A stretch of 45,432 nt of DNA, from the IMG/VR virus record IMGVR_UViG_3300042261_000976, positions 68,627-114,058 of that record, one strand, 5' to 3'. The DNA comes from a virus. Positions 104-45,432 of this stretch are shown here, piece after piece. A model generated the notes under the pieces. That model did no database searches. It was not told where the DNA came from and saw nothing but the letters and a program-made list of their open reading frames with translations. Position numbers and translations under genes: made by a program. Within the stretch, counting starts at the first letter, position 1. Every line of letters begins with the position of its first letter.

Positions 104-3100
104 ATGAAAGTATTTAATATAAATGATAATTATTTCAAATATCAAAAATGTTTGTCTGGAATTACATATCAATATGTTAATGAATTAGATGACATATACG
201 CCAAAAATCTTATGGTTGGCACTAATTATTGTTTATATTGTATGTATAACGAGTTTGACATCATAAATAACTTTATGGTGAACTTATATCAAGTGGACGT
301 TTGTAGCACTTTAAATTTGGATTTAACTAAAAGATATTTTGATATAGACGGTGTTTCTCTAAGAACAGGACACAGAGTAATTCTTGTTGGTCAAACAGAT
401 AAAACACAGAACGATATTTATAATGTTGATTCTAGAGGATACCTTATATTATCAGACGAATTGGCTGACACTGGAAAAACTTGGAGATATAAAGCCTATG
501 TTAAATTAGGAGGAAATAAAAGTAAACAATTTCACTTAAAAAATTCAGGTAATAGATTTCCATTGAAGGGCGAAAAAAAGGAATTTTTAGAGGGTCATGG
601 TTATATTATAAAGAGCATATTTAATTACAATTTATTTTACGATGGACCTGTAAATCCAAAATTGATTTTTACTGATTATGAACTGGCTAGAATATCAGTT
701 AATAAAAACTACGAATTATACGATGGTTTCTATTTACCACTATTTATCACTGGTGATACTATTGATATTAAATATCATAACAGTGATTATATAATAAAAG
801 TAGATAATAATAATTCTAAATACATTTATACTGGGGTTACTTTAAGAAATACTGTTCTAAACACTGGAAGTACGGATATGTGGGGAAATTACGGTTATGA
901 AACATTCATAAAAACTAATTCCACTATATGTTCAAACGCTAATGTTTACGATTATGTAAAATTCGAGATATCTGGCAATACAAGCTTATATCTAAAAACT
1001 TTTATAAAAAGAATAGATGATCCTTATATAATCATATCAGATTATATATCTGATAATATCTTAAATGATTATTATTCGCCTAATATATCTGGTGCTAGTT
1101 ATTATAACACAACAATCGATGATTTAACTTATCCAACTTCAGGATTATGGCTAACACAAACATATGATACTTTCTTACCATATCAAGGAGGGGAATGGGT
1201 ACTACTTGAGTCTGGCGCAACTTGGTATTTGACAGGACAGGTTATTTCATATACTGGTAATACTGGTGATATTCTTATAAATATAACATATTCCAGTGTT
1301 CCTATCGGAACTAATTTTCATTGGGTTGTATCTTTAATAAGTGAACCTACTTATTATAGTTTTACTAATTTGATGTATTCTGATATTATGGATGTTGAAA
1401 ATACAATTTTAGAATCATATTATTCTAAATATTTCGATATTGATGGGGCTGGAAAATTATACCCAGCAGAAAATCTTGATAATTTATATTTTGATTATGA
1501 TGGATTAACATTCTATTTTAATACTACAGGACAATCTTTTACTACAACAAATGATTATATAAAATACAATTTATATAATCATCTCAATAAAATAAATCCA
1601 TATTTATTTGATACCGGATATACTTTTTTGATTGATAAACAATTAAATGCGATTACTTTTACTTATGAATATTTCGATGAAAGACCAAACCCTTATATTT
1701 ATCCTAATACTATAGGTGATAGCAAAGGAACGCTTATAAAGATAATACCTTATATTTCAAGTTATGTGAATTATTTTAAAAATCACACATATGTTGCTTT
1801 GAGTGATAATACAGGAGAATATAAATCTCTTATAGTAGATCTTGTTCCAAATGAATATTTTGTCGTAGAAACATATAAATCCAATACAGGATTAACTCTT
1901 AATTATATAAAAACAATATACAATTTAAAAGAAATATCAGATATTCTTTATGATGTTTATATAAACGAAGAAAACTCATATTACAGAGTGAGAGATGACG
2001 ATATGAGAAGAAATATATGTAATGGTTACGCTTCATTTATAAGCGAGGATTTAGGAATAATAGATAATACGACCGCTTTTTTAATGCAAGATCCACAACA
2101 TAAATTCGTTCTTAAAATATACGATCCCGAGAACTCCTATAATGGTGGTGTCGTAAGATCTCCTTATGTTATAACTAGACTTGATATAACTATTCCTACA
2201 GGTGGTACTTCAGCCATATTAAAGGGTGAAGTTATGAATGATGGGGGATCAAATATAACAGAGAGAGGAATTTGTTATTCTCCAGACTCTATTAACTTTA
2301 CATGTGTTTCAGCAACGACTTTAGGATTAGGACCTTATACATGCAATATTTATCCTCTAACTCCATTATATACCTATTACTATAAAGCTTATGCTAAAAA
2401 TATTCAAGGAATTGGGTATGGCGAATTATATACTTTTACTACTTCCGATCCAAATTATACAGCTCCAACAATAACTACAGACTATGTAGTTCCATATTCT
2501 CATAAATTAACACCATATGCTGATATTGTAGATATTGGATGGCTTCCTATACTAGAGAGAGGATTTATATATCAAACAGGAATAACTACACCCACTTTGA
2601 TAGATGATTTAGTTATTGTATATCTTCCAGAAAATGGTCAAACTGGTAGTTTTTATACTGATTTGACTGGGCTTACACATTCTACAATGTATTCTATAAA
2701 TAGTTACGCTATAAATATTTGCGGCACAACTTATGGGGATACTTATCATTTAGAAACATTATATCCTTCTCCTCCTGTTATAAATACAGTAGGATATACT
2801 AATGTTACATACAATAGCATGGATGTTATATGCAATTTAATAAGTAATGACGGAGAACTAACAGATCCAATTCACGGAGTAAACCAGATGGGGGTTGTTT
2901 ATTCGAATGATCCTGTTAATTTACCAACAACAGGAAATACTGTAAGACCTTATACTCCTATATCATTCGGACAATTTATAGTAAATTTAACTGGTTTAAC
3001 TTATAGTCAAAATTATTATATTAGAGCATACGCTATGAATACTTTATATTCCGGAAACACAACCGTTTATGGTACTATGATTTTTCCACCTCCTGCAACA

Positions 3101-8945: not shown

Positions 8946-9983
8946 ATGGATAATTATATACTAAAGTATGGAAACTACAAGATAAATGAAGGCAAGGAAT
9001 CTATTGAATTTCCTTTGTTTATATCTAATAAGCTAAGAAAGATATTACAAAAGATAATAACAGAACCCATAGCTAAAAAACTTCTAGAAACTAAAAATTC
9101 TATAGATATATCTTGGATAGATGCAGATCCAGATAGTAAAAGTGTATCTTATTTTCCATTAGACAGAATAAATAGAATAACATCAGATGCTCCAATTGAA
9201 ACAACATTAGAATTGTTAGCAAAATATTGGCCAACAAATCCTCCAGATGATTCAGATTTATGGAAAAGTAAATATAGACAAAGCATGTCTTGGGGAAAAT
9301 TAATTAATAAATTATTCCCTAATGAATTTTCAAACATGGACATCGATCGTTTCTATAATAGATATCGCCCGGAAATTGATGCAAGCAAAGGAGATGAAAG
9401 ATTTGAAGTAGTTCACGGCGACGATATTCGTTACTGGTATCATGAAGATAGATATAACGGAGGTTTGGGTTCTTGTATGAGACATAGCTCTTGTCAGAAC
9501 TATTTTGGTATATACACAAATAACCCTGACAAATGTGGGCTTTTAATATATCATGATGATGTTAAAAGTAAACTAATATTAGGTAGGGGTCTTGTGTGGC
9601 AAGGTTTATTAAAACCAAGCGGTGATACTCAAGAAAATAAAGAACAATATACATTATTAGATAGAGTGTATGTAGTTAGTGGAAGACCTGATCTAGAAAA
9701 TATATTTCATAAATATGCTATAGATCACGATTGGATATATAAAAAGAATAATGAATCATTTTTAATGAATGGAGTTAGAAAAACAACTTCAGTATCAATA
9801 CGTTTAAAACCAGTAGAGTATAAACAATATCCTTATATGGATACAATGATTTATTATACTCCAGCTACTGGAAGGGCGGCTTCATCTCCTGGAAATCCAG
9901 GAAGAGATCCTAATAATCCTTCTAAAATGTTTCAAAGATATACATTAAGGAGTCAGCATGGAGGAGCAGACGCTGTAAGATAA
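8946..9983 (+). CDS. Tandem paralog family member 1 (unknown function; CTS-like N-terminus)
   Basis: Shares conserved blocks with the next three ORFs: GRQ.MS.GKLINKLF, G(E/D)DIRYWY, GSCM(R/K), NP(E/D)KCGLLI, GRALVW, MDR(I/V)Y, LKP.EYKQYPYMDT, TGR(L/A)AS. N-terminus MDNYILKYGNYKINE resembles T4 CTS MKTYQEFIAE. Confidence 0.55.
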   Translation: MDNYILKYGNYKINEGKESIEFPLFISNKLRKILQKIITEPIAKKLLETKNSIDISWIDADPDSKSVSYFPLDRINRITSDAPIETTLELLAKYWPTNPPDDSDLWKSKYRQSMSWGKLINKLFPNEFSNMDIDRFYNRYRPEIDASKGDERFEVVHGDDIRYWYHEDRYNGGLGSCMRHSSCQNYFGIYTNNPDKCGLLIYHDDVKSKLILGRGLVWQGLLKPSGDTQENKEQYTLLDRVYVVSGRPDLENIFHKYAIDHDWIYKKNNESFLMNGVRKTTSVSIRLKPVEYKQYPYMDTMIYYTPATGRAASSPGNPGRDPNNPSKMFQRYTLRSQHGGADAVR

Positions 9984-10000
9984 AAAAAAAAATAAAAACA

Positions 10001-11059
10001 ATGACTAACGTTGCACCTTACTTGAATTTTATAAACGAAGACATAGATCCTATGACCGGTGAAGAGAAGAAACCAACTTTTGTAAAAGGAGAAAAGAAAC
10101 TTTTAAAATTATTCATATCTCCAAAATTAAGAGAAATTCTTGGTAAAATGTTAAAGGTTGGGGATTTCCAAGTTAAAGCAGTAGCCAATAGAATAATGGG
10201 ACTTTCAGAAACAGATGAGCTTTTTGATATATCTTATCTAGATGTAGAAAAAGGAAAAGATGACAGCATAACTTATATGCCAGCTAACAGAGTATGGTAT
10301 AAGAAAAATTTTGCAAGTCAAGAAGAAGCCAATAGAGTACCAAGCCCTGATGATGAATCATGGACTGGATCTGGCAGACAAAGTTTATCTATTGGTAAAT
10401 TAATCAATAGATTATTTGATAATTTCACAGACTTGTCTGTTCAAAAGTTTGTTAACGCTTATAAGGCTGAAATAGCAGCAACATTAATTTATAATAGATT
10501 TCAAGTGGTTAGAGGTGAGGATATTAGATATTGGTATAGTGAAAAACGTTTAGCTTCAACAGACGGTAATCTTGGTGGTTCTTGTATGAAATATGACAAT
10601 TCACAAAGAAATTGTCAGCCTTATTTTGAAATTTATGTTCAAAATCCAGAAAAGTGTGGTTTAGTTATATTAACAAATACAGATAATAAATTAATAGGAA
10701 GAGCTTTATTGTGGTCAGATTTAAGAAAACCAACAGGTAAAATTTTTATGGATAGAATTTATACTATAAAACAGTCTGACGAAGAATTGTTTAAAAAGTA
10801 CGCAGTGGAAAACGGATGGCTACATAAAGCAAGACAAGAAGCTCATAACGCCGCTTATGTTGAAGATGGTCAAGTAGTAAACAAATCAATAGCTTTACAG
10901 TTGAAACCAAAACAATATAAACAATATCCTTATATGGACACATTAAAATTCTATAATCCTGGTACAGGAAGATTAGCATCAGATCCTGGTAATCCAGTAC
11001 CTGGAATGCATAGATATAGATTAGAAAACGCAGACGGACAATCTCAAAGAATTGATTAA
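10001..11059 (+). CDS. Tandem paralog family member 2
   Basis: Same conserved blocks: MPANRV, GRQSLSIGKLINRLF, VVRGEDIRYWY, GGSCMKY, NPEKCGLVIL, GRALLW, MDRIYT, LKPKQYKQYPYMDT, TGRLAS. N-terminus MTNVAPYLNFINED (Y..FI.E, CTS-like). Confidence 0.55.
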   Translation: MTNVAPYLNFINEDIDPMTGEEKKPTFVKGEKKLLKLFISPKLREILGKMLKVGDFQVKAVANRIMGLSETDELFDISYLDVEKGKDDSITYMPANRVWYKKNFASQEEANRVPSPDDESWTGSGRQSLSIGKLINRLFDNFTDLSVQKFVNAYKAEIAATLIYNRFQVVRGEDIRYWYSEKRLASTDGNLGGSCMKYDNSQRNCQPYFEIYVQNPEKCGLVILTNTDNKLIGRALLWSDLRKPTGKIFMDRIYTIKQSDEELFKKYAVENGWLHKARQEAHNAAYVEDGQVVNKSIALQLKPKQYKQYPYMDTLKFYNPGTGRLASDPGNPVPGMHRYRLENADGQSQRID

Positions 11060-11074
11060 AAAAATATATAAAAA

Positions 11075-12166
11075 GTGGGAATTAAAAATTATACAGGTTA
11101 CATACTAAATGAGCAAGAGATTAACTTAAAAGATTCTCTTATGTTCTTTTCTCCGAAGTTTATATCTTTAATAAAAAAGATAAATTCTCCAATAACTAAG
11201 GATCTTATGGATTTATTGGACAATAGAGAATCAAGATTTCCTTTTTCTTATATAAATTTAAATGATGATATAGATTTTATAAGTGTAATGCCAGCAAATA
11301 GAATTGGTAGAATAGAAGGAATTACCCAGAAAGATTTAGAAAATCCGGATCCTAATAGTCCTGTATGGAACGAAAAGGGAAGACAAGTAATGAGGATAGG
11401 TGCTTTTGTAACTAGACTATTTCCAAAATATGCTGGCACAAAAGATCTAGAGAATTTTGTACAACAAATAAAAGGTATTCGTGATGCTGAAAATTATACT
11501 ATTAGATTAGTAAGAGGCGAAGAATTAAGAGCTTGGTATCACGTTAAAACATATTATAATCCTCATCCAGGAATGGAAGATCCTCCTGAAGATGAAGGTG
11601 TGATGGATATAAGAACGCCATTGATGAAATCATGTTTGAAACAACCAGAGAAACAACATTTCTTTGATATGTATGTTGAAAATCCAGATAAAGTTGGACT
11701 ATTAATAATGACAAATACAGATAATAAATTAGTTTGTAGAGCTCTTGTTTGGTTTGATGTATATATGGTAGATAATCCACAAAATCCCACAAAGGGCACT
11801 ATAATGGATAGAATATATTATACTCAAGAATCAGATGTGCATATATTTATAAATTACGCTAAAGAACATGGATGGTGGTATAAAACAAATCAAGCTAAGG
11901 GATGTGAAACTTATGTTGTTAATGGTCAAGTAATGGACAAACCATTAAGAACACAATTACCACATCATAGAATGTTTGCAAAATTCCCTTATATGGATAC
12001 ATTTTGTTATTATTCGCCAGATACAGGAAGATTAGCATCAACTAGAGGAAAACCAGCCAAGAATATGACTGGAAAGACTATAGGAGAATGCCCAGCAGGA
12101 AACTTTTTTGATAGATACTTATTACAGAAGGCCAATGGTGGTTTCAAAAAATTGCTTCCTAAATAA
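11075..12166 (+). CDS. Tandem paralog family member 3 (most diverged)
   Basis: MPANRI, GRQVMRIGAFVTRLF, LVRGEELRAWY, KSCLK, NPDKVGLLIM, CRALVW, MDRIYYT, FAKFPYMDT, TGRLAS. N-terminus MGIKNYTGYILNEQE. Confidence 0.55.
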   Translation: MGIKNYTGYILNEQEINLKDSLMFFSPKFISLIKKINSPITKDLMDLLDNRESRFPFSYINLNDDIDFISVMPANRIGRIEGITQKDLENPDPNSPVWNEKGRQVMRIGAFVTRLFPKYAGTKDLENFVQQIKGIRDAENYTIRLVRGEELRAWYHVKTYYNPHPGMEDPPEDEGVMDIRTPLMKSCLKQPEKQHFFDMYVENPDKVGLLIMTNTDNKLVCRALVWFDVYMVDNPQNPTKGTIMDRIYYTQESDVHIFINYAKEHGWWYKTNQAKGCETYVVNGQVMDKPLRTQLPHHRMFAKFPYMDTFCYYSPDTGRLASTRGKPAKNMTGKTIGECPAGNFFDRYLLQKANGGFKKLLPK

Positions 12167-12180
12167 TAAACTAAAGATAA

Positions 12181-13122
12181 ATGATTATCTATAATTATAA
12201 CAGTTTTCTAAATGAAGCAAAAGAAGTAGTTTTAGATATTTCTGATAAATTACAGAAAGTTCTAAAATCCATGAAGGATCCTATAGCAGAGGCTATATTA
12301 AAAGTATCAGTACACGGTGATACACCAGGAGTTTATGATATAGCCTATTTAGATTATTTCGACGAGAAAGATAAAAATGATAAAATTTCTTTCCTTCCAG
12401 CCAATAAAATAAGTCCTGATCTAGTTGGGGATCCTTTTAAGGCAAAGGGCAGACAAGAGATGTCAGTTGGTAGAATTGTAAATAAATTATTTCCAGAAAA
12501 ATTCACTCAACCACAAATAGAAGCTTTTGTTAATGACTTTAAGGCATCCTTGAAAAAATTCTTTATAAATTTACAATTGGTTCAGGGTGAAGAAATAAGG
12601 TATTGGTATTTAGAAACACGTTATGCTTCAAGAGCAGGTGATATTAATAGTTCGTGTATGAGAGGTCAAAAAGCTCAAACATTTTTTGATATTTATTGTA
12701 ATAATCCAGAAAAATGTAAATTGCTAATATTAAAAAATGATGACAATTTATTAATGGGTAGAGCTTTAGTTTGGTTTGAAATGCGTAAACCAACCGGGAG
12801 AGTTTATATGGATAGAATTTACACAATAAACGACGCAGATAAAAAATTATACATAGACCACGCTATAGCAAATAATTGGTTATATAAGAATAAACAAGTA
12901 ATGCATGATGCTTCTTATATAGATAATGGAAAACTAGTTTATAGTTCAGTAGCTATTCAATTAAAACCAGTGGAATATAAACAATATCCGTCTCTGGATA
13001 CTTTGAGTTATTATACTCCAAGCACAGGCAGATTGGGAAGTAACGCTGGAAATTATGTTCCAGGACATCCACGTTATCAATTAAATAGCACCACTGGAGG
13101 AGCAGCAAAAATAGATAGATAA
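12181..13122 (+). CDS. Tandem paralog family member 4
   Basis: LPANKI, GRQEMSVGRIVNKLF, LVQGEEIRYWY, SSCMRG, NPEKCKLLIL, GRALVWF, MDRIYT, LKPVEYKQYPSLDT, TGRLGS. N-terminus MIIYNYNSFLNEAKE (Y..FLNE). Confidence 0.55.
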   Translation: MIIYNYNSFLNEAKEVVLDISDKLQKVLKSMKDPIAEAILKVSVHGDTPGVYDIAYLDYFDEKDKNDKISFLPANKISPDLVGDPFKAKGRQEMSVGRIVNKLFPEKFTQPQIEAFVNDFKASLKKFFINLQLVQGEEIRYWYLETRYASRAGDINSSCMRGQKAQTFFDIYCNNPEKCKLLILKNDDNLLMGRALVWFEMRKPTGRVYMDRIYTINDADKKLYIDHAIANNWLYKNKQVMHDASYIDNGKLVYSSVAIQLKPVEYKQYPSLDTLSYYTPSTGRLGSNAGNYVPGHPRYQLNSTTGGAAKIDR

Positions 13123-17704: not shown

Positions 17705-19531
17705 ATGGCAAGTTACGATCGATATAGAGGAAATCAAAATCAAGCTGGTACAAATACCACTAATTTTGGTTTGTTCAATAGAATATTAAGAGGACTTTCT
17801 ACCATGTTTGGTGGATTGGAATATAATGATATGCGTATTAGAAATTCATATGCTATTGGAGTACATGAAGAAACAACAGATGTTCTTTATCAACCAAATA
17901 GTTCTAATATGTATGATTTATTTACTAAGAAAACTATAGCAAGATTCTTAGACAAAAAATCAATCGCTTATCTAGATAGAACATATTTAGATAAAAGAAA
18001 AATCCTAAGACAATATTCTATAAAAGATGAAATTAAAGATTTCATAACTCAAATTGCCGATGAATGTATAATTTATGATGATAACAATAGATTTTGTTTT
18101 GTTAAAGATCTTCCAGACACATACGAACAAACTATAAGACAAAAATATCAAGAAACTTTTACTAAACTTATAAATACTTTTAATTTTAATGAGGGTCAAA
18201 CAGCGTGGAATTATCTTAAAAATCTTTTAATTGATGGTTATATTTCTTATGAAGTCGTCTATGATGATAAACAAAAAAATATTATAGATCTTGCCCCGAT
18301 TGATCCAATTACTTTAATTGTTGCTACTGATCCAAACACAAATACGATGATTTGGATTCAACATCCAGATAATCCGGCATTAAGAAGAATTTTATTGGAT
18401 TCACAAATTATTTATATTTCATATTCAAACAATAATGAATATGGAGAAACTTCTTATGTTGAAAATCTTATTCGTCCTTTCAATCAATTGAAAATGATTG
18501 AACAGGCTAGATTACTTTACAATATTAATCAAGCCTCTATTTATAAGAAATTTACAATACCTGTTGGAGGATTGACTCGTCAACAAGCAGAACAACAAAT
18601 AACAGAACTCATAGCTGAGTATCATGATGATGTTCAGTGGGATGAAAGAATGGGTACTGTAGCAATTAATGGGAGTACAAATATTCCTTTTAGTAAAGAT
18701 ATTTGGTTTCCTGAAGGCAATGCAGGTACTCCAAACGTAGAAATTTTACAACCAACACAAGTTAATTTAAATGAAGATATAGTTCTTCAATGGTTCTTTA
18801 AGATATTAAAAAGAGCTAGTAAATTACCATTTGAAAGATTTAATGAAGAAAATGGTGGTGGAGCCTATGCTTACGATTCAAACGCTCAAGTTACTAGGGA
18901 TGAAGTTAAATTTAAAAATTTCATCAATAGAATAAGAACTATATTTAAGGAAATTCTTCTTAAACCTTTGAAGATTCAAATGATTTTAGAATTTCCAGAA
19001 TTAAAAGACGATGTAGATTTTAATAACTCTATTAAACTTGATTTTATTTCTGATACATTATTTGAAGAATGGCGTCACCTAAAGAACTTAAATGAAAGAG
19101 CATCTATAGCCCAAACATTGAGTTCATCACTCCAAGATGCTGCTGGTAAACCTTATCTTAGCATAGAATGGATAGTTCGTCATATTATGAAGTTCACTGA
19201 TGCTGATATTGAAGAAAATAATAAATATAAAGCAATAGAACGTAAGATGATGGGTGGTATGGAAGGAGCCGAAGGCGGCGGTGAATTCGGAGGCGGCGGA
19301 GGCGGCTTCGGTGGTGGCGGTATGTCATTCGGAGGTGGCGGTGGAGCCCAATTCGGTGGCGGTGGAGCCCAATTCGGTGGCGGTGGAGCCCAATTCGGTG
19401 GCGGTGAATTCGGTGGAGCACAAGGCGGTGGAGCCCAATTTGGTGGGGCACAAGGAGCACAAGGCGGTGGAGCCCAATTTGGTGGAGCACAAGGCGGTGG
19501 TGGCGGACAATCACAAGCACCAACATTCTAA
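17705..19531 (+). CDS. Portal protein (T4 gp20-like) with unusual C-terminal Gly-rich repeat tail
   Basis: By-eye alignment to T4 gp20: VTRDEVKFKNFINRIRTIFKEILLKPLKIQMIL vs [33 protein letters not shown], plus a block matching around YRITRAPDRR.../TGNMEDIRWF. Gene order portal, protease, MCP. The last ~90 aa are GG(E/A)QFGGGG repeats. Confidence 0.8.
   Translation: MASYDRYRGNQNQAGTNTTNFGLFNRILRGLSTMFGGLEYNDMRIRNSYAIGVHEETTDVLYQPNSSNMYDLFTKKTIARFLDKKSIAYLDRTYLDKRKILRQYSIKDEIKDFITQIADECIIYDDNNRFCFVKDLPDTYEQTIRQKYQETFTKLINTFNFNEGQTAWNYLKNLLIDGYISYEVVYDDKQKNIIDLAPIDPITLIVATDPNTNTMIWIQHPDNPALRRILLDSQIIYISYSNNNEYGETSYVENLIRPFNQLKMIEQARLLYNINQASIYKKFTIPVGGLTRQQAEQQITELIAEYHDDVQWDERMGTVAINGSTNIPFSKDIWFPEGNAGTPNVEILQPTQVNLNEDIVLQWFFKILKRASKLPFERFNEENGGGAYAYDSNAQVTRDEVKFKNFINRIRTIFKEILLKPLKIQMILEFPELKDDVDFNNSIKLDFISDTLFEEWRHLKNLNERASIAQTLSSSLQDAAGKPYLSIEWIVRHIMKFTDADIEENNKYKAIERKMMGGMEGAEGGGEFGGGGGGFGGGGMSFGGGGGAQFGGGGAQFGGGGAQFGGGEFGGAQGGGAQFGGAQGAQGGGAQFGGAQGGGGGQSQAPTF
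19254..19500 (+). repeat. Tandem imperfect ~24-bp repeats (GGTGGAGCCCAATTCGGTGGCGGT) encoding a Gly/Ala/Gln/Phe-rich portal tail
   Basis: Directly visible repeat of GGAGCCCAATTCGGTGGCGGT units. Locally GC-rich. Generates three spurious overlapping ORFs in other frames. Confidence 0.7.
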
Positions 19532-24421: not shown

Positions 24422-24850
24422 TTAAATCATTCTGAATGTTCTATTTTCATTGACAGGCCATAAATATTTATAATCATTGAACCCATCATCATTTGGAAAT
24501 TTTGGTAGATAAAAAATTCTATCTTTTTCTATGAGTCTACTACGCATAGCTCTATGAAAATTTTCATTACCTAACCACCACGGATAATCATAATTGTCAT
24601 CGTATATAATATAGTGCATGTTATTCACATAACCACGTTTAATCCATTCTACTATCATAGCATTATGGTACTCCGCTAAAGCGCCCATATATCCTGCCCA
24701 CATTTTTACCGCGGGATGATTTTTCCAACGTGTAGGGTTTATTAGACAATTATATATTTGATAAGCCTCGACTCTCTGCTTGCCCAATCTCCTATAGTCT
24801 AATACTTCGGCTGATAATTTGAAATCAGCGTATGGAAGAAAAGTCTGCAT
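24422..24850 (-). CDS. Pyrimidine-dimer DNA glycosylase (T4 denV / endonuclease V family)-like
   Basis: N-terminus MQTFLPYADFKLSAEVLDYRRLGKQRVE fits the Pyr_excise pattern (T4 denV: [25 protein letters not shown]). MIVEWIKRGY matches LIAECLKRGF. Confidence 0.45.
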   Translation of the reverse strand: MQTFLPYADFKLSAEVLDYRRLGKQRVEAYQIYNCLINPTRWKNHPAVKMWAGYMGALAEYHNAMIVEWIKRGYVNNMHYIIYDDNYDYPWWLGNENFHRAMRSRLIEKDRIFYLPKFPNDDGFNDYKYLWPVNENRTFRMI

Positions 24851-29825: not shown

Positions 29826-31406
29826 TTATTTTCTTCTATGTTTTATTATATAATCAGTTATTATTTCTGGTATATTTATTTCTGATATAACAGAAAATGT
29901 TGGGAAGTGTGGTGAAGAATTGGCTTCCATTACATAATATTTTCCAGTAACTTTATCCTGAATAATATCAAAACCAACTATATCACATATTAAATGTTTT
30001 GATATATCCTCACACATAGCAATTATATCTGGTGGTAATGATCCTTTTACAGCCTTTCCACCTCTTGCAACGTTAGCTCTAAATTCCTTTGAACCTTTTA
30101 TTCTTTCTTTCTTTATTACTAGTTCAACTTTATTCTTTATAGAAATAACTCTATAATCTCCGTCATTAGGAATAAATTTTTGAATCAACATCAACTTATT
30201 ATTATATCCAAAATGATCTACTAATTGTGACATTTTATCAATCTTGAAAACTCCTTCTCCTCTATTTAGATTAACATCTTTAACGATGACTGGAAATCCA
30301 AATTCTTTAACATGTTGAATAACTCTTTTCGTTAATTTTGTTGCCATTATTGAAGGTATATAAGGATAACCCAAAGATTCTAATAAATGAAATTCATAAG
30401 CCTTATTATCTAAATCTTTATATGTGCCATATTTGAGATATGGAATATTGTGTTTATCTAAATAATGGATTAACATTTTAACAACGGTAGAGAAATTAGA
30501 CATAAAACCAAAGAAAACAAAATCATATTCTTTAAGTCTCATATTATCAATATAATAATCATTATTGACTCTATAAATATCATCGTAATTACAAAAATCT
30601 ACTAATGAATCTTTTAATTTATCCTTGAATAAGAGTGGGAATAACTCTGACATTTGACGTTTTCCCTTAAAGTAATTGTGTTTATCTTTTTCACCGTGAG
30701 TATCTATGGCTAAATCAAATTGTAAGAATAAAAATTTATGTTTGAATGCGACGTCTCTTTCTACAGCCTTGAATCTAAACATTTTATATGGGATTCTATA
30801 ACCTATTTCTATATGAGGTTCTCCACTTTTATAATATCTTCCTTTACTATCGCATACAGTTCTTACTTTATGAAATGGTTTTGATTTCAGAAATTCAATT
30901 TGACTATCGTTCAGATCATTAAAATCTTCACAAATAACATAATCCCCAACTTGAATAGGCAAACTATCAATATCAAATGCTACATCATCTTCATCAAGTT
31001 CTTCGCCTTCTTTACCCATTAATGTGTCCATAACATCTTTTGGTAAGAACTTAAAATATGGATGTTCTTCAAGATCTTTTTTACTGATCTTTTTCTTTTC
31101 TTTCTTTTCTTTCTTTTTTAAGAAATCAAGATATGGATTTCTACTAGTTTCTTCTCCTCCTTCTTCTTTATCCTTTTCATCGCTGATAGGATTTTCATCC
31201 GGAAACAATGGTAGTTCTATTTGATCGTCTTTTTCCACAACACGTTTGCCTGGTTTCCCATATCCAAACATATTACTAAATGGTTTATCCCAATCAAAAT
31301 TAAATCCAAATGGTTTCTTTGAAGGGTCTGGTGGAGGTGCTTTCTTTTTAACATCTTTTTCTTTTTTCGCCTCGAAATAAGATGAATATTTTTGAATTTC
31401 TGTCAT
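29826..31406 (-). CDS. ATP-grasp ligase of the RimK family, with N-terminal K/E-rich low-complexity region
   Basis: C-terminal 300 aa: FPVIVKDVNLNRGEGVFKI, LIQKFIPNDGDYRVISI, EFRANVARGGKA, DIVGFDIIQDKVTGKYYVMEANSSP, the order and spacing of RimK/glutathione-synthetase-type ATP-grasp motifs. N-terminal 130 aa are KKEKKEKKK / EE-rich and disordered-looking. Confidence 0.65.
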   Translation of the reverse strand: MTEIQKYSSYFEAKKEKDVKKKAPPPDPSKKPFGFNFDWDKPFSNMFGYGKPGKRVVEKDDQIELPLFPDENPISDEKDKEEGGEETSRNPYLDFLKKKEKKEKKKISKKDLEEHPYFKFLPKDVMDTLMGKEGEELDEDDVAFDIDSLPIQVGDYVICEDFNDLNDSQIEFLKSKPFHKVRTVCDSKGRYYKSGEPHIEIGYRIPYKMFRFKAVERDVAFKHKFLFLQFDLAIDTHGEKDKHNYFKGKRQMSELFPLLFKDKLKDSLVDFCNYDDIYRVNNDYYIDNMRLKEYDFVFFGFMSNFSTVVKMLIHYLDKHNIPYLKYGTYKDLDNKAYEFHLLESLGYPYIPSIMATKLTKRVIQHVKEFGFPVIVKDVNLNRGEGVFKIDKMSQLVDHFGYNNKLMLIQKFIPNDGDYRVISIKNKVELVIKKERIKGSKEFRANVARGGKAVKGSLPPDIIAMCEDISKHLICDIVGFDIIQDKVTGKYYVMEANSSPHFPTFSVISEINIPEIITDYIIKHRRK

Positions 31407-32179: not shown

Positions 32180-33058
32180 TTAAACCAATCCCTTTATTTT
32201 TAATGCTCTTAATAGTCTTGTTAATCCTATTCCTCCACCATATCTTTTGAACATCTGTAGAGATAAATAATCTTCCAATTCTTCTTCAACTCTTTCTTGT
32301 GAAAATTCATTAAAAAGAAGTTTAGCATACATGCCATCACTGATTGTATGGAAGCTACTACGCATTTGTTCAACATCAGATTCTCTCTCAGCACTACCAA
32401 ATGTTTCTATACCACAAATTATAAAATCACATTTATTAAATAATTTTTCACCAGTCATTTTATTGTTTCCTTCCTGTTTCATATTCCAAAAAGGACTTGT
32501 TCTTTCCGGGAAATTAGTTATAGCAACTACATCGCCGTATTCTTCCCACATTTTAGTTTCATGTTCTGCTTCAAGAATTTCAACACCATATCTCTTGCAC
32601 AATTCGTCATATTCTATAAAAGGTATATCATCTACCGATTTCACAAACCCCATATGAACTGACAATTCACTTAAAGTTTTTAACAAATCTTTATATTCTC
32701 CTTTATGTTCAAATTCAAACATAGGGAATATTTTATCATGTCTTCCTTCGATTGGATTTGGTTCATCTCTATAACTTGTTGTTAAACAATATATGCCTTC
32801 AGATTCTTCTGGGTATGTCATTAATAACATTTCAAGATTCATCTGATTAGTTTGACTCAACGGCCAATTTTTACCATCAAATGTAAATGATCTGAGAGTT
32901 TTTGGATCTTCACAAGCAGCCATTATTGATCTAATCGGTTGTGGATAAACCTCTTTGTAATTTTTTTGCATAAAAAAATCCCTTAGTTTAACAATCATAG
33001 AATTAAACTCTTCGGGACTAATAACTTGTTGATTAAAAATTTTCTTTTTCATAAGCAT
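32180..33058 (-). CDS. Class II aminoacyl-tRNA synthetase catalytic-core paralog lacking an anticodon-binding domain (EpmA/GenX- or AsnA-like amino-acid ligase)
   Basis: Motif 1-like FFMQKNYKEVYPQPI; motif 2 TTSYRDEPNPIEGRHDKIFPMFEFE (fRnE...rH..EF.m.E.E); motif 3 GGGIGLTRLLRAL (GxGxGxxRL). 292 aa, only the catalytic core. Confidence 0.6.
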   Translation of the reverse strand: MLMKKKIFNQQVISPEEFNSMIVKLRDFFMQKNYKEVYPQPIRSIMAACEDPKTLRSFTFDGKNWPLSQTNQMNLEMLLMTYPEESEGIYCLTTSYRDEPNPIEGRHDKIFPMFEFEHKGEYKDLLKTLSELSVHMGFVKSVDDIPFIEYDELCKRYGVEILEAEHETKMWEEYGDVVAITNFPERTSPFWNMKQEGNNKMTGEKLFNKCDFIICGIETFGSAERESDVEQMRSSFHTISDGMYAKLLFNEFSQERVEEELEDYLSLQMFKRYGGGIGLTRLLRALKIKGLV

Positions 33059-33114: not shown

Positions 33115-33891
33115 CTATTTTTTATTTATTTTAGTTTTTTCTATTATTATAAAATTCTTCGATTTGTTATATCTTAAAATACTAGAAAAACTAAAGTTTT
33201 TTTCTTTTGAAAATTCTTTTAATTCATCTCTGCTTTTTATTTCAAATATATTATCATTGTTTTTTATTTTATAACAAACTGAATTTCCGTTATTTAATCC
33301 AAATCTTTCTATTTTCCATTTTTCTTTTAATTGTTCGGAATGAGTTTTATCATAAAAAGGATTTTTTTCTCCAATTTTAGCTTTTCTTATTTTTTCTTTT
33401 GATTCTTCTGTATGTTCAAAAATATGTCCTTCGTGTCCAATTAAAGATTTACTAATATTTTTTCTTCTCTCTTCTTTTTTCCTTTCTGACATATTTCCAA
33501 AAGCTATTATTACAGATTTTGATATTTTATCTTTTGTTGAATTATTATGCTTAAATCCACTTTGTCCTTCCCCACCATCGCTAAAATTAACAAGTGGTCC
33601 ATTTTCCATTCTTCCTATTTTTAATATTAATTCTTTTTCTTTCATAAAAGCTTTGTTTTCCGATAAATTATCATATACCTTTTTAACAATAGGAGTAAGA
33701 CCTAATTCTTTAATTTTACTAATTTTATTTAATTTATAAGAATTATTAATTGAATGATTCAAATGATAGAACATTCTATTGCCAATTCCTTTGCCTACAT
33801 AAAAAGGTTCAAAATCAAACTCTAAATTTTCATAAATGAATTTTCCTGGTTTTCTAGGATCTAAATAGATATAAACATAATATTCTTCCAT
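33115..33891 (-). mobile_element. GIY-YIG homing endonuclease (Seg / I-TevI-like, free-standing)
   Basis: N-terminal YVYIYLD...EPFYVGKGIGNRMFYHL (GIY...YIG...R...H). C-terminal NUMOD3-like helices (SKSLIGHEGHIFEHTEESKEKIRKAKIGEKNPFYDKTHSEQ). Located directly after the truncated DNA polymerase gene. Confidence 0.65.
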
Positions 33892-33905
33892 ATATACCGT
33901 AAAAA

Positions 33906-34000
33906 TTGGCGAACCCTAACTGCGGTGCGTCCACTGACTTTTTCAAGTTCTACACTAGCCCAAACGGTCGGAGCGCTCTTTTAGGTTTTACTCGCCAAAG
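33906..34000 (-). other. GC-rich ~95-nt structured element between the polymerase fragment and the homing-endonuclease gene
   Basis: Local GC ~55% against ~30% background. Bounded by a 7-bp inverted repeat TTGGCGA...TCGCCAA. Contains the palindromes GAGCGCTC and AGCGCT. No coding frame. Confidence 0.35.
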
Positions 34001-34032
34001 TTTATATATTTAATTCAAAAAATCAATTTTTT

Positions 34033-35547
34033 CTAATCCGAATATTCTAGTTCCATTATTAAATCTTCTTCTGCTGCCTTCAATTCTCTCTTATGTTCTT
34101 CCAATTTATCATGATCTTTCATCATGAAATCTTTATATTTCTTTCTATCTCCATATACATCAGTCATTACTTGATTAACTATACCAGTTTCATTCTTGAA
34201 CACAGTATCGTTTAACAATTTAATATCTGTAGGTTCTAGTTCAACTCTATGTCCATTAAATACTGCAAATTCTTTATTAGGTGATAAAACTCCTTTATAA
34301 GAATCTGCTGATATATTGAACATTCTCATACAAGTAGGGTACAAACTTGCGAAGTCATAACAAGCTGTCCACATCGCCATTCCCTTGATTGTATCTTTTA
34401 CCCAACCACCTTTAACTGCTTTTTCTAAAGATTCTATTACTGTATCTGGTAAACTTTTTTCTAATTTACAAAGAATAACATTTTTTTCTTCTTTAAGTTT
34501 TCTTCTTAAGATGCCTTCAGTAACAGGTAAAGTAGAATAAGCATCTAATATCTTTATTCTAGATAATGTAGCGATGCCATAAAGAATATCAACCCATTTA
34601 GTAGTATCATGTATTTTTTGAACTAGAATAGAGTCAACAGCATTATAAAAAATGAATTTCTTATAATCTGTAGATGCTAATGTTTTAAGTGTTCCTTCGT
34701 AATTGATTTTCTTTACACCAAGAATACCATCAGAAACAAAGTCTAAACTGCTTGCCTCTTTTACTTTAATGATACTATTCCATTTTTCATATAATTCCTG
34801 ATAGTCAACTATAATTCTATGTCCTGGTAATTCGCAGAAAGATTCTCTTTTTTTACCACTTTTATTATCTCTTTTAAATGGAGGTCTAAGAACTCTCGTT
34901 GGTGATGCTGCGGTAGGATCAACTCCTATTTTTCTAGCTCTATTAACAAGAAATACCCAGTCGTATTCTGTAAAGTTCCAACCTGTTATGATTGGCATTT
35001 TTGGTACAAATTTCTCAAAGAAATTTAGTAACATTTCATATTCACTCTTATATCTTACGAATTTGAAATCATAGTCAGCGTTGAATTTAACAAAATAATT
35101 ATTAATGTCTTCTCTAATGGATTTTTCTTGCTCAGCACTCAAAGCGTCAAGCCCCATTACCATTACTTTATTCTTATTGACTATAGATATTGATTGTATT
35201 GCGCTTTCAGCTAATTGAGGTTGCGGCTTTTTATCCAGAATTTCGTTTTCAATATCAACAAAGAAAATTTCTGGCTCTACATATTTCATTACAATTTCTT
35301 GTTCTTCTTTCGGAAGACTATCAATAAAATCGTATACAGAATATCTATCTGGAAATCTTGTATAGACTTTCTTTACTGCTTTACCATCCCATGTAACATA
35401 TTGACCGTCTTTATCTCTATCATCGTCAGAGCAAACAACGTATTTGGTTGGATTTGGCCATGTATAGTACTTATGTTTTATCCATCCACCTTCACCGATG
35501 TAAGACAACATGAGTTTTTGATTCTTATATTCGTAATCTACAACCAA
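34033..35547 (-). CDS. Family-B DNA polymerase, N-terminal fragment only (T4 gp43 '43A'-like: 3'-5' exonuclease domain through polymerase motif A)
   Basis: Exo I IFFVDIENE (T4 CDIEVTG); Exo II MPIITGWNFTEYDWVFLVNRA (T4 PAIFTGWNIEGFDVPYIMNRV); Exo III FIFYNAVDSILVQKI (T4 YISYNIIDVESVQAI); motif A YDFASLYPTCMRMFNIS (T4 FDLTSLYPSIIRQVNIS). Ends ~70 aa after motif A. Motifs B and C are absent. The annotated start is a TTG at 35547; the first ATG is at 35511. Confidence 0.75.
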   Translation of the reverse strand: MVVDYEYKNQKLMLSYIGEGGWIKHKYYTWPNPTKYVVCSDDDRDKDGQYVTWDGKAVKKVYTRFPDRYSVYDFIDSLPKEEQEIVMKYVEPEIFFVDIENEILDKKPQPQLAESAIQSISIVNKNKVMVMGLDALSAEQEKSIREDINNYFVKFNADYDFKFVRYKSEYEMLLNFFEKFVPKMPIITGWNFTEYDWVFLVNRARKIGVDPTAASPTRVLRPPFKRDNKSGKKRESFCELPGHRIIVDYQELYEKWNSIIKVKEASSLDFVSDGILGVKKINYEGTLKTLASTDYKKFIFYNAVDSILVQKIHDTTKWVDILYGIATLSRIKILDAYSTLPVTEGILRRKLKEEKNVILCKLEKSLPDTVIESLEKAVKGGWVKDTIKGMAMWTACYDFASLYPTCMRMFNISADSYKGVLSPNKEFAVFNGHRVELEPTDIKLLNDTVFKNETGIVNQVMTDVYGDRKKYKDFMMKDHDKLEEHKRELKAAEEDLIMELEYSD

Positions 35548-35782: not shown

Positions 35783-36211
35783 TTATACTTCTATTTCATG
35801 CCACAAATCATTTAATAATTTTGAGATTTGACCTATTCTATACATTGAAGAATTATTAGTTCTTTTTAATACTTCATATTCACTTATATCTTCCATCTCA
35901 TTAAGAGTTTCAAGAATATCATCTAAATAATCGTGAAGAGTTTGATTCATAATACCTCCATTTTTATTGGAATATTGGAAACATGAATCCATTTTTCTCC
36001 ACATTTTATCAATAGAATTCTTAAATTTTTCTAAATTTTTAATGACTTCAACAGAGCCATCTCCCATTCCATCTTCTAAAATTTTAAAATCTGACTTGAA
36101 CTTATTAATGGCATCTAGCAATTCAAGTTCCATTTTTTCTCTATCCTTTTCCCAGAACTTCCACTTTATCTCCTCAGTTATAAAGTCTTCTTGTCTCCTT
36201 AGATATATCAT
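35783..36211 (-). CDS. Hypothetical acidic helical protein (142 aa)
   Basis: ATG start, acidic/helical composition, no motif. Confidence 0.3.
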   Translation of the reverse strand: MIYLRRQEDFITEEIKWKFWEKDREKMELELLDAINKFKSDFKILEDGMGDGSVEVIKNLEKFKNSIDKMWRKMDSCFQYSNKNGGIMNQTLHDYLDDILETLNEMEDISEYEVLKRTNNSSMYRIGQISKLLNDLWHEIEV

Positions 36212-44341: not shown

Positions 44342-45432
44342 TATTTATTTTATTATCCACCCGACACCACTCAAAGGAATAATATTAATTGATGTATTAT
44401 GATATTGAATGTCGAATGTCGAATATCCATTGATAAATTCTTGGTTGTATATATTAAAATTTACAATACTATATCCGATATTATTTATAGTATATCCATT
44501 TTGATTACTCGATGATATAGGCGACATATTTAAAATAATATTTGAATTTGACGTCCCTGAAGTTAATATGATGTCGTCGGTCGAAGTTAGATTAGTCGTT
44601 CCACTATATACAATTCTAAATGATGGAGGACCAGATGTCCCGGAACCATCTTTACCGGAAGAACCAGATGTTCCTGAATTTCCAGTAATTCCACTAGTAC
44701 CACTAGATCCAAAAAAACTACCATCTGCCCCGCTGGAACCACTAGACCCACTAATTCCATGAGTCCCAGCAATACCAGATGTACCACTGGATCCATCAGA
44801 CCCTGATGTTCCACTAGTGCCCGATGTTCCACTTAAACCACTAGTTCCACTAGTCCCTGATATTCCACTGGTTCCACTAGTTCCGCTAGTTCCTGATGTT
44901 CCTGATATTCCGCTGGTTCCACTAGAACCACTAAACCCCGATGTTCCACTCGTTCCTGATGATCCGCTAGTTCCTGATGATCCGCTAGTTCCTGATGATC
45001 CGCTAGTTCCTGATGATCCGCTAGTTCCTGATGATCCGCTAGTTCCTGATGATCCGCTAGTTCCTGATGTTCCACTAACTCCATGTGTCCCCGATATTCC
45101 ACTAGTCCCACTAGTTCCTGATGTTCCACTAGTCCCACTAGTTCCTGATGTTCCACTAGTCCCACTAGTTCCTGATGTTCCACTAGTGCCACTAGTTCCT
45201 GATGTTCCACTAGTGCCACTAGATCCACTAGTTCCTGATGTTCCACTAGTGCCACTAGATCCACTAGACCCAGATGTCCCACTAATACCATGTGTCCCCG
45301 ATATTCCACTAGTTCCTGATGTTCCACTAGTGCCACTAGTTCCTGATGTTCCACTAGTGCCACTAGATCCACTAGTTCCTGATGTTCCACTAGTGCCACT
45401 AGATCCACTAGACCCAGATGTCCCACTAATAC
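44342..45432 (-). CDS. Collagen-like (Gly-X-Y) repeat tail-fibre protein, 3' portion; the gene continues past the window end
   Basis: Minus-strand frame reads ...GSSGTSGITGNSGTSGSSGKDGSGTSGPPSF... with Gly at every third residue for more than 250 aa and no stop codons. It runs into the non-collagen C-terminal domain that the track lists as a separate 60-aa ORF (44345..44527). The track ORFs 44568..44762, 44587..44832 and 44833..45426 are the other frames of the same repeat. Confidence 0.6.

Follow-up and report, generated by a model that had tools for sequence, protein, structure and literature searches.

The stretch of DNA analysed here, referred to throughout as the window, comprises 45,432 nucleotides (nt) of the IMG/VR virus record IMGVR_UViG_3300042261_000976 (positions 68,627 to 114,058). 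Three consecutive features on its minus strand form the subject of this analysis. The first is a gene for the N-terminal half of a family-B DNA polymerase (the N-half, a '43A-like' subunit of 504 amino acids (aa); window 34033-35547), assigned from Pfam and PHROG matches, alignment to RB69 gp43, an AlphaFold2 model and the ratio of nonsynonymous to synonymous substitution (dN/dS). It is followed by a non-coding element of ~140 nt (33892-34035), recognised from its conservation in related loci, and then by a gene for a free-standing Seg-like GIY-YIG homing endonuclease of 258 aa (33115-33891), identified through Pfam matches to GIY-YIG and NUMOD3. The spacer from the polymerase stop to the open reading frame (ORF) of the endonuclease is 141 nt (33892-34032). 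The closest match to the N-half comes from a 735-kb uncultured phage (LR756501/LR756503; 83% aa identity over all 504 residues), followed by the ~640-kb phages LR756502, LR756504 and LR745206 at 40%, the Lak megaphages at 28% and the jumbo phages MA9V-1/2, PAU and pT24 at 25-30%. The window is a piece of a very large phage genome and, because of the size of that genome, a small sample of it.

The N-half contains an N-terminal domain, a 3'-5' exonuclease domain with motifs Exo I-III, the N-terminal portion of the palm with motif A, and the first helix of the fingers. The Pfam family DNA_pol_B_exo1 is matched by residues 96-252, and only the first third of DNA_pol_B is matched, with residues 354-483 covering profile positions 25-146 of 453. 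The exonuclease motifs, all intact, align to those of RB69 (Exo I, FFVDIE, residue 95; Exo II, GWNFTEYD; Exo III, YNAVD, residue 301), and motif A, DFASLYP at residue 398, aligns to DLTSLYPS. Across 44 N-halves Asp98, Glu100, Asn191, Asp196, Tyr301 and Asp305 are invariant or nearly so, and Asp398, Ser401, Pro404 and Arg468 are invariant. The protein matches PHROG 2062, a 'DNA polymerase' profile, from end to end (E = 7e-65), and also the first half of PHROG 262, a full-length family of 856 positions. As PHROG 2062 has 502 positions, a phage family of N-terminal halves of this size already exists.

Neither motif B (KxxxNSxYG) nor motif C (YGDTDS) is present in the N-half ORF. Searches of the 45-kb window by tblastn with the C-terminal halves (C-halves) of two relatives returned only noise (best hit 30 bits, E = 0.004), and a six-frame regular-expression scan of the window for KxxxN[SGA]xYG and xxDTD[SG] found no match. 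The initial annotation, made from the sequence alone, had described the ORF as the N-terminal fragment of a split family-B polymerase with no ORF carrying motif B or C anywhere in the window, and both statements hold. It had also placed the stop about 70 residues after motif A, whereas the ORF runs for 106 residues past the motif A aspartate. The start is TTG, directly after an in-frame TAA, as had been noted, and the stop is TAG. The homologue in LR756501 begins with ATG at the position of the TTG codon and residues 2-12 are conserved, an alignment that supports the TTG start. The stop codon itself differs between the two genes, being TAG in the window (34033-34035) and TGA in LR756501 (L001:13513-13515). 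The Lak relatives are reported to recode TAG; readthrough here would meet an in-frame TGA six codons on, so the conclusion would be unchanged.

The AlphaFold2 model of the N-half, calculated with the 44-sequence alignment, has a predicted local distance difference test score (pLDDT) of 88.7 and a predicted template-modelling score (pTM) of 0.84. It ends in one unbroken 48-residue helix (residues 456-503), with no return helix. The best Foldseek matches of the model are to RB69 gp43 (E = 4e-24), with template-modelling scores of 0.65-0.71 normalised to the query (TMq) and ~0.4 normalised to the target (TMt), the latter corresponding to the first half of RB69 gp43 with ~40% of the target covered.

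Alignment with HMMER pairs residues 163-478 of the N-half with residues 188-492 of RB69 gp43, which puts the stop at approximately RB69 residue 518. A profile of 11 stand-alone C-halves begins at approximately RB69 residue 525, with motifs B and C aligned; such a profile was needed, since phmmer with the LR756501 C-half alone gave no match against the PDB. The coverage of Pfam DNA_pol_B abuts in the same way, the N-half extending to profile position 146 and the C-halves starting from 138/149. The second-best cluster representative among the N-half homologues, P0122, is an intact polymerase of 949 aa with 44% identity, and on this chain the window N-half covers residues 1-500 and the LR745206 C-half residues 505-906. 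Because the halves are colinear on P0122, the loop joining the fingers helices has been cut cleanly, without loss or gain of sequence. The break, which the initial annotation had proposed to map against intact homologues, is at residues 500-505 of P0122 and ~518-525 of RB69 gp43. Its location, with one long fingers helix on either side, is the fingertip, the same structural spot as in the 43A/43B split of T4-related phages, and 43A of Aeromonas phage 44RR (498 aa) ends at the same helix as the window N-half. A global MAFFT alignment of the halves with T4 gp43 was reliable for the N-halves and 44RR 43B; the megaphage C-halves were scrambled in it and it was not used for those.

The end of the ORF is conserved. 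The LR756501 orthologue also has 504 codons, without a single insertion or deletion relative to the window gene, and ends in the same LIMELEYSD followed by a stop. Between the two genes dN/dS is 0.057 over the 504 codons, with synonymous sites saturated, and constraint is strongest over codons 340-478, which hold motif A and the fingers and have a ratio of 0.031. The same 504-codon ORF is found without the endonuclease in LR756501 and locus L023 (both 83% identical) and in locus L008 (86%), and as these endonuclease-free relatives share the ORF end, the endonuclease did not cause the break. The polymerase ORF is 500-505 aa long in all nine related loci with ORFs listed, and orthologues are present in 17 IMG/VR loci, the matches all ending at query residue 480-504. 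An identical N-half protein, the only record of the exact sequence, is encoded on an independent 13-kb Logan contig (SRR35144456); from this and the conserved orthologues it follows that the gene is not an assembly artefact. A sequencing error or frameshift, for which the initial annotation had allowed, is excluded by the conservation of the ORF end across many independent assemblies, and a decaying pseudogene by the low dN/dS at saturated synonymous sites. Judged from these comparisons, the split is an inherited and selectively maintained trait of a large jumbo/megaphage polymerase clade, and not recent damage. The clade includes LR756501 (735 kb), the Lak phages, PAU, pT24 and MA9V.

A C-half is present in every complete relative genome examined. 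In LR756501 the N-half gene lies at 90182-91693 (-) and the C-half gene at 709334-711034 (+), 618 kb away on the linear record or 115 kb if the genome is circular; the C-half is a protein of 566 aa with motif B as KTVLNATYG and motif C as MYGDTDS. Comparable distances are seen in LR745206 (N-half 232803-234338 (+), C-half ~130.6-132.0 kb (-), ~101 kb apart), LR756502 (253853-255376 (+) and 120495-121859 (-), ~132 kb), LR756504 (255869-257344 (+) and 537995-539143 (-), ~281 kb) and Lak-A1 (202139-203557 (-) and 428561-429280 (+), ~225 kb). In Lak-B the halves are on the same strand and ~6 kb apart, with the C-part upstream (N-half ~505-510 kb (-), C-half ~513-520 kb (-)). Two IMG/VR records also carry both genes: the 130-kb record 3300042261_001186, with the N-half at ~37.6 kb (+) and the C-half at ~120.5 kb (-), 81 kb away, and 3300025715_000021, with the N-half at 1329-2837 (-) and the C-half 7.8 kb upstream at 10609-13070 (-). 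Among the complete megaphage genomes checked, LR756501, LR745206, LR756502 and LR756504 each have one N-half locus and one C-half locus, unlinked, while a second C-half place is found in LR756500 and most Lak records. The cultured phages PAU (gp105/gp110), pT24 (BPT24_165/168) and MA9V-2 (192/196) have two annotated polymerase genes 1.2-4.6 kb apart, with two to four unrelated genes between them. No C-half lies within 6 kb of the N-half in the loci of 18 relatives, and none is found in the window within 34 kb downstream or 10 kb upstream of it. A search with the LR756501 C-half gave 695 homologues, the best 120 of which are all 352-732 aa long, with none of the length of a full polymerase. The relatives thus bear out the alternative raised in the initial annotation that the 43B part has been relocated: their C-half gene can be 7.8 kb upstream of the N-half gene, at a distance of 81 kb or at one of 100-280 kb, and is often encoded on the other strand.

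The C-halves themselves vary. Those of 560-570 aa, the type found in the subclade closest to the window, have an additional ~45-residue repeat resembling a tetratricopeptide repeat (TPR) at the N-terminus, before the motif B helix (L006:4785-~5000 for the LR756501 C-half, and in P0021, P0025, P0026 and P0030; Pfam TPR_1, E = 1e-5 in P0021). The 474-aa type and the intact P0122 are without it. This N-terminus may be a docking module for the N-half, for example for its acidic C-terminal helix. In the record with the halves 7.8 kb apart (IMG/VR 3300025715_000021, L033:6001-8462), and also in L030, L036, L037 and L038, the C-half is broken at motif C (DTD|S): an N-intein piece that runs to a stop is followed, in another frame, by the ORF of a 127-aa Vsr-like endonuclease (L033:7115-7495) and then by a C-intein ending in ILVHN|S. 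A split intein together with a free-standing endonuclease was described as a 'fractured gene' by Dassa et al, 2009 (PMC2677866); here this arrangement occurs inside the C-half of some relatives and turns the polymerase of those phages into a three-piece enzyme. Other C-halves contain a contiguous intein (P0026, residues 262-420).

Stand-alone N-halves are common in the family. Of the best 150 N-half cluster representatives (clusters at 50% identity), 111 are stand-alone N-halves of 430-640 aa, 24 are intact polymerases of 825-980 aa and 15 are fragments. A quick neighbour-joining (NJ) tree gave at least 15 changes between the split and the intact state by Fitch parsimony, a rough count in that states were assigned by length from metagenomic gene calls. 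The window protein falls in an NJ clade of 21, made up of 20 split proteins and the intact P0122. The nesting of P0122 among 20 split relatives suggests either re-fusion or many independent splits. Rough as it is, the count of state changes indicates that breakage (or re-fusion) at the fingertip is recurrent. Throughout the clade the 24 intact single-chain polymerases, P0122 included, are interleaved with the split ones.

The feature is real, was correctly spotted in the initial annotation and is of a known kind. Natural splits of gp43 in phages 133, 44RR, 31, 25 and 65 are all in the fingertip, and Pfu polymerase artificially split at the finger tip is fully active (PMC3061061). For Aeromonas phage 25, 43A and 43B are described as co-purifying and active, as cited from Petrov et al, 2010 (PMC2988022). 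The window gene resembles the bicistronic gp43 of these T4-related phages (Aeromonas 44RR2.8t, 25, 31 and 65; Acinetobacter 133) in the fingertip split, in an N-subunit of ~500 aa whose counterpart C-subunit carries motifs B and C, and in that a free-standing GIY-YIG (seg-like) gene can adjoin the split. It differs in layout, for in the T4-related phages the 43A and 43B cistrons lie side by side on one strand with 2 bp to 3 kb between them, whereas the window has no C-half and in the relatives the distance between the halves ranges from 1.2-4.6 kb to more than 100 kb, the two often being on opposite strands. Of the match to split gene 43 proposed in the initial annotation, the position of the break therefore stands and the adjacent, insertion-interrupted arrangement does not. 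Since the window protein has ~22% identity to T4 gp43, compared with 50% for 44RR 43A, the T4-like and the jumbo/megaphage splits are almost certainly independent events at a shared structural hot-spot.

The two-gene polymerases of the jumbo phages and megaphages (PAU, pT24, MA9V-2, Lak and LR756500-LR756504/LR745206) belong to the same protein family as the window N-half and have the same break point, and the LR756501 gene is its orthologue, with 83% identity and conserved synteny. The closest of these relatives lack the GIY-YIG gene of the window in the downstream slot. The two-gene arrangement is already visible in the GenBank annotation of the cultured relatives and in PHROGs; a literature search found no explicit account of the dispersed split in Lak, huge or megaphages, which is absence of evidence only. 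Unlinked genes for one family-B polymerase have a precedent in Methanothermobacter thermautotrophicus, where PolB consists of two polypeptides encoded 85 kb apart (PMC3061061). That enzyme is split in the palm, unlike the fingertip break of the window gene, and the Pfu split is artificial; both are archaeal.

Taken together, the ORF is very probably the N-subunit of a two-gene replicative family-B polymerase that is split at the fingertip, with the gene for the C-subunit elsewhere in the genome. The C-subunit would carry the second fingers helix with motif B, motif C of the palm, and the thumb. The two polypeptides would associate non-covalently, the fingers helices pairing in trans and the palm being completed, and by analogy with 43A/43B of phage 25 and with split Pfu the assembled halves would give an active polymerase-exonuclease. 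We infer that the window phage has a C-half because its relatives have one and because the polymerase-specific parts of the N-half are strongly constrained. Several points weigh against this interpretation. The C-half of the window phage itself was not recovered, the window having none, and the six close C-half clusters (P0003, P0005, P0006, P0010, P0013 and P0014) are all from samples other than SRR35144456, that of the identical N-half. As P0122, at 44% identity, is intact, the split state is not universal. An active two-subunit complex in the clade is something we infer by analogy, experimental precedent being limited to gp43A/B of phage 25 and split Pfu.

Were the N-half instead to act by itself, say as a 3'-5' exonuclease or a factor for proofreading, in a phage that has lost the C-half or uses another polymerase, its intact exonuclease motifs and the lack of a C-half in the window would be accounted for, and jumbo phages of the group have been reported with an additional split minimal Pol III alpha (PMC7824862). 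Against this, conservation of motif A and the fingers helix is no weaker than that of the exonuclease part, with the low dN/dS of codons 340-478 and the four invariant residues from Asp398 to Arg468, and every complete relative genome examined also has a C-half. We consider a stand-alone role improbable.

The initial annotation had also allowed for a different history, in which a homing-endonuclease insertion of more than 5 kb with its cargo recently interrupted gene 43 and the C-part lies just beyond the cargo. The proximity of the GIY-YIG gene, 141 nt downstream of the polymerase stop, fits such an event, as does the precedent of seg43(25) between 43A and 43B in Aeromonas phage 25 (PMC2988022), although that endonuclease may itself have invaded a gene that was already split (PMC2988022). 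The endonuclease-free relatives at 83-86% identity, however, have the identical ORF end and the same 504 codons, the contents of the slot vary between them, and the C-half is missing not only from the 34 kb downstream and 10 kb upstream in the window but also from the 6 kb around the N-half in the 18 loci, lying in relatives tens to hundreds of kilobases away, or upstream. Interruption of gene 43 by a large insertion is accordingly very improbable.

It is equally hard to credit that the halves are joined after expression into one polypeptide, by a split intein or by RNA trans-splicing. Protein splicing does operate on this polymerase gene family, as the inteins in some C-halves demonstrate, some being interrupted at motif C by a split intein that has an endonuclease gene inside it and others, such as P0026, containing a contiguous one. 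PolB of Nanoarchaeum equitans is reportedly a split-intein polymerase encoded in separate pieces, and is similar to the present case in that respect; the fingertip break of the window gene differs in having no intein fragments. No intein domain is found in the N-half or at the starts of the C-halves, and there is neither a Cys/Ser/Thr junction nor an HN motif. The last 26 residues of the N-half and the first residues of the C-half are colinear with the fingertip of P0122, leaving no room for an intein, and Rfam gives no group I intron signal around the gene. The idea of a pseudogene remnant, or of an artefact of assembly or sequencing, has only the truncated look and non-ATG start of the fragment in its favour and can practically be dismissed, given a dN/dS of 0.057, the identical protein in an independent assembly, the 500-505-aa ORFs in nine loci and the 17 IMG/VR matches ending at query residues 480-504, the alignment of the TTG with the ATG of the orthologue and the confident AlphaFold2 model.

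In the interpretation of giant-phage contigs, a 'truncated' polB of ~500 aa should be read neither as a pseudogene nor as evidence of a missing polymerase, and its partner gene must be sought genome-wide. Under the two-gene reading, the few natural family-B polymerases of two subunits are joined by those of a large and mostly uncultured clade, with the fingertip as a recurrent, tolerated break point and two genes that need not stay linked. A stronger proposal seems doubtful, namely that in this clade an enzyme encoded by two unlinked genes is the majority state and one favoured by selection rather than neutral damage. In its favour are the 111 stand-alone N-halves among the best 150 cluster representatives, the rough count of at least 15 state changes, the location of the two genes more than 100 kb apart on opposite strands in some relatives, and the TPR-like N-terminus gained by the C-half of one subclade. 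If the split is adaptive, the exonuclease and polymerase modules might benefit from separate control of dosage or timing, nucleotide selectivity might be altered by the open fingertip, as it is in split Pfu, or the gene might resist attack by homing endonucleases; this would amount to a general design principle of giant-phage replisomes.

The GIY-YIG homing endonuclease reported downstream of the polymerase in the initial annotation was found there, with Pfam matches to GIY-YIG (PF22945, E = 6e-11) and NUMOD3 (PF07460, E = 9e-10) in the 258-aa ORF. The residues expected of a GIY-YIG domain can be read from the sequence, namely VYIY, FYVGKG, the following Arg (GNRMFYH), a Glu and an Asn (LVNFSDGG). 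NCBIfam gives a match to a group I intron endonuclease subfamily, under the cut-off, and an E-value search of window 29-38 kb with Rfam found no intron or ribozyme, only sub-threshold small-RNA noise. The gene has its own start and stop in the intergenic slot between the conserved element and the downstream gene for a protein resembling an aminoacyl-tRNA synthetase (aaRS), and is apparently intact and free-standing. It is similar to the Seg-type endonucleases of T4 in combining GIY-YIG with NUMOD3, in its intergenic position with its own start and stop, and in its presence or absence among close relatives. It differs in that identity to any phage homologue is only 29-41%, the distant ones being annotated as Seg-like homing endonucleases. 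A pattern scan of IMG/VR revealed no close relatives of the protein.

The slot holds a 92-aa ORF in LR756501 and L023 and nothing in L008, while other relatives have either an ORF of ~580 aa or different GIY-YIG genes that vary in position and orientation; a 36%-identical copy of the endonuclease is found at another site in L011. Homing endonucleases of different families thus share the polymerase neighbourhood as a hot-spot, and the window endonuclease is one of several occupants, a later, independent insertion unrelated to the polymerase split. It is an ordinary feature of a neighbourhood that attracts free-standing endonuclease genes, and would be a selfish gene that landed in a variable slot, is probably transcribed from the promoter-like element just upstream, and is predicted to spread most likely by cutting endonuclease-free alleles in co-infecting relatives. 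Directly upstream of the N-half gene LR756501 has a 234-aa ORF (L001:10877-11581 (-)), a Vsr-like endonuclease gene without a Pfam match; the intein-associated endonuclease of L033 matches it with 38% identity (E = 3e-28). The corresponding position in the window is occupied by an unrelated 142-aa ORF (35783-36211).

The element starts at the N-half stop codon and has a promoter-like part, AAATTGAT-N13-AATATATAAA, which is succeeded by a leader and a run of T. The ends of the leader can pair (TTGGCGAG...TTCGCCAA), and downstream of the promoter-like part TTGGCGAGTAAAACCTA ... TTAGGGTTCGCCAA precede the T-run. Copies are found as conserved non-coding sequence in LR756501 (L001:14016-14142), L008 (2812-2935) and L023 (7806-7933), in LR756501 and L023 placed after the 92-aa ORF. 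The element is 86% conserved, compared with 79% for adjacent coding sequence, and is single-copy in the window. Its 5' promoter-like part recurs upstream of other genes in relatives, and for this reason a promoter plus leader is the preferred reading over a structured RNA. A structured RNA was not established: the closing helix comes from a four-sequence alignment with one compensatory pair, and the single-sequence z-score is 0.34. Rfam gave no match to the element.

The aaRS-like gene (292 aa; window 32180-33058 (-); Pfam tRNA-synt_2, E = 3e-15) forms the downstream flank of the endonuclease slot, and beyond it, separated by a small ORF, is a gene for a RimK-type ATP-grasp ligase (526 aa; 29826-31406 (-); Pfam RimK, E = 6e-21). 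Of the 18 relatives' loci examined, nine have both genes in synteny with the N-half gene and three more have the RimK-like gene alone, and the order of N-half gene, variable slot, aaRS-like gene and RimK-like gene is kept across relatives. The aaRS-like gene, whose protein is confined to a class II catalytic core, falls far under every NCBIfam aaRS cut-off and belongs to PHROG 29758 of unknown function, is not part of the polymerase. The RimK-like ligase has a long low-complexity N-terminus, and the two genes may form an amino-acid-ligating module.

Elsewhere the window encodes a T4-type portal protein, a prohead protease, a major capsid protein and a head-closure protein. The C-terminal tail of the portal protein (window 19150-19530 (+)) is Gly-rich, with a GGGAQFGGG repeat. 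No tRNAs were found in the window, and the long ORFs across it are consistent with the standard code 11. Four tandem paralogous ORFs of 345, 352, 363 and 313 aa (8946-13122 (+)) have motifs in common, for example GE(D/E)(I/L)R.WY and KP..YKQYPYMDT..YY.P.TGR; one of the four was scanned against PHROGs and gave no match. The end of the window (44560-45430, ~850 nt) is highly periodic, with long repetitive ORFs in several frames on both strands, and possibly belongs to a structural gene with collagen-like or other triplet repeats that continues beyond the window. A 142-aa ORF at 24422-24850 (-) corresponds to a product on the Logan contig (L007:11968-12396) flagged as PF03013, which is Pyr_excise, the T4 denV-type pyrimidine-dimer glycosylase family.

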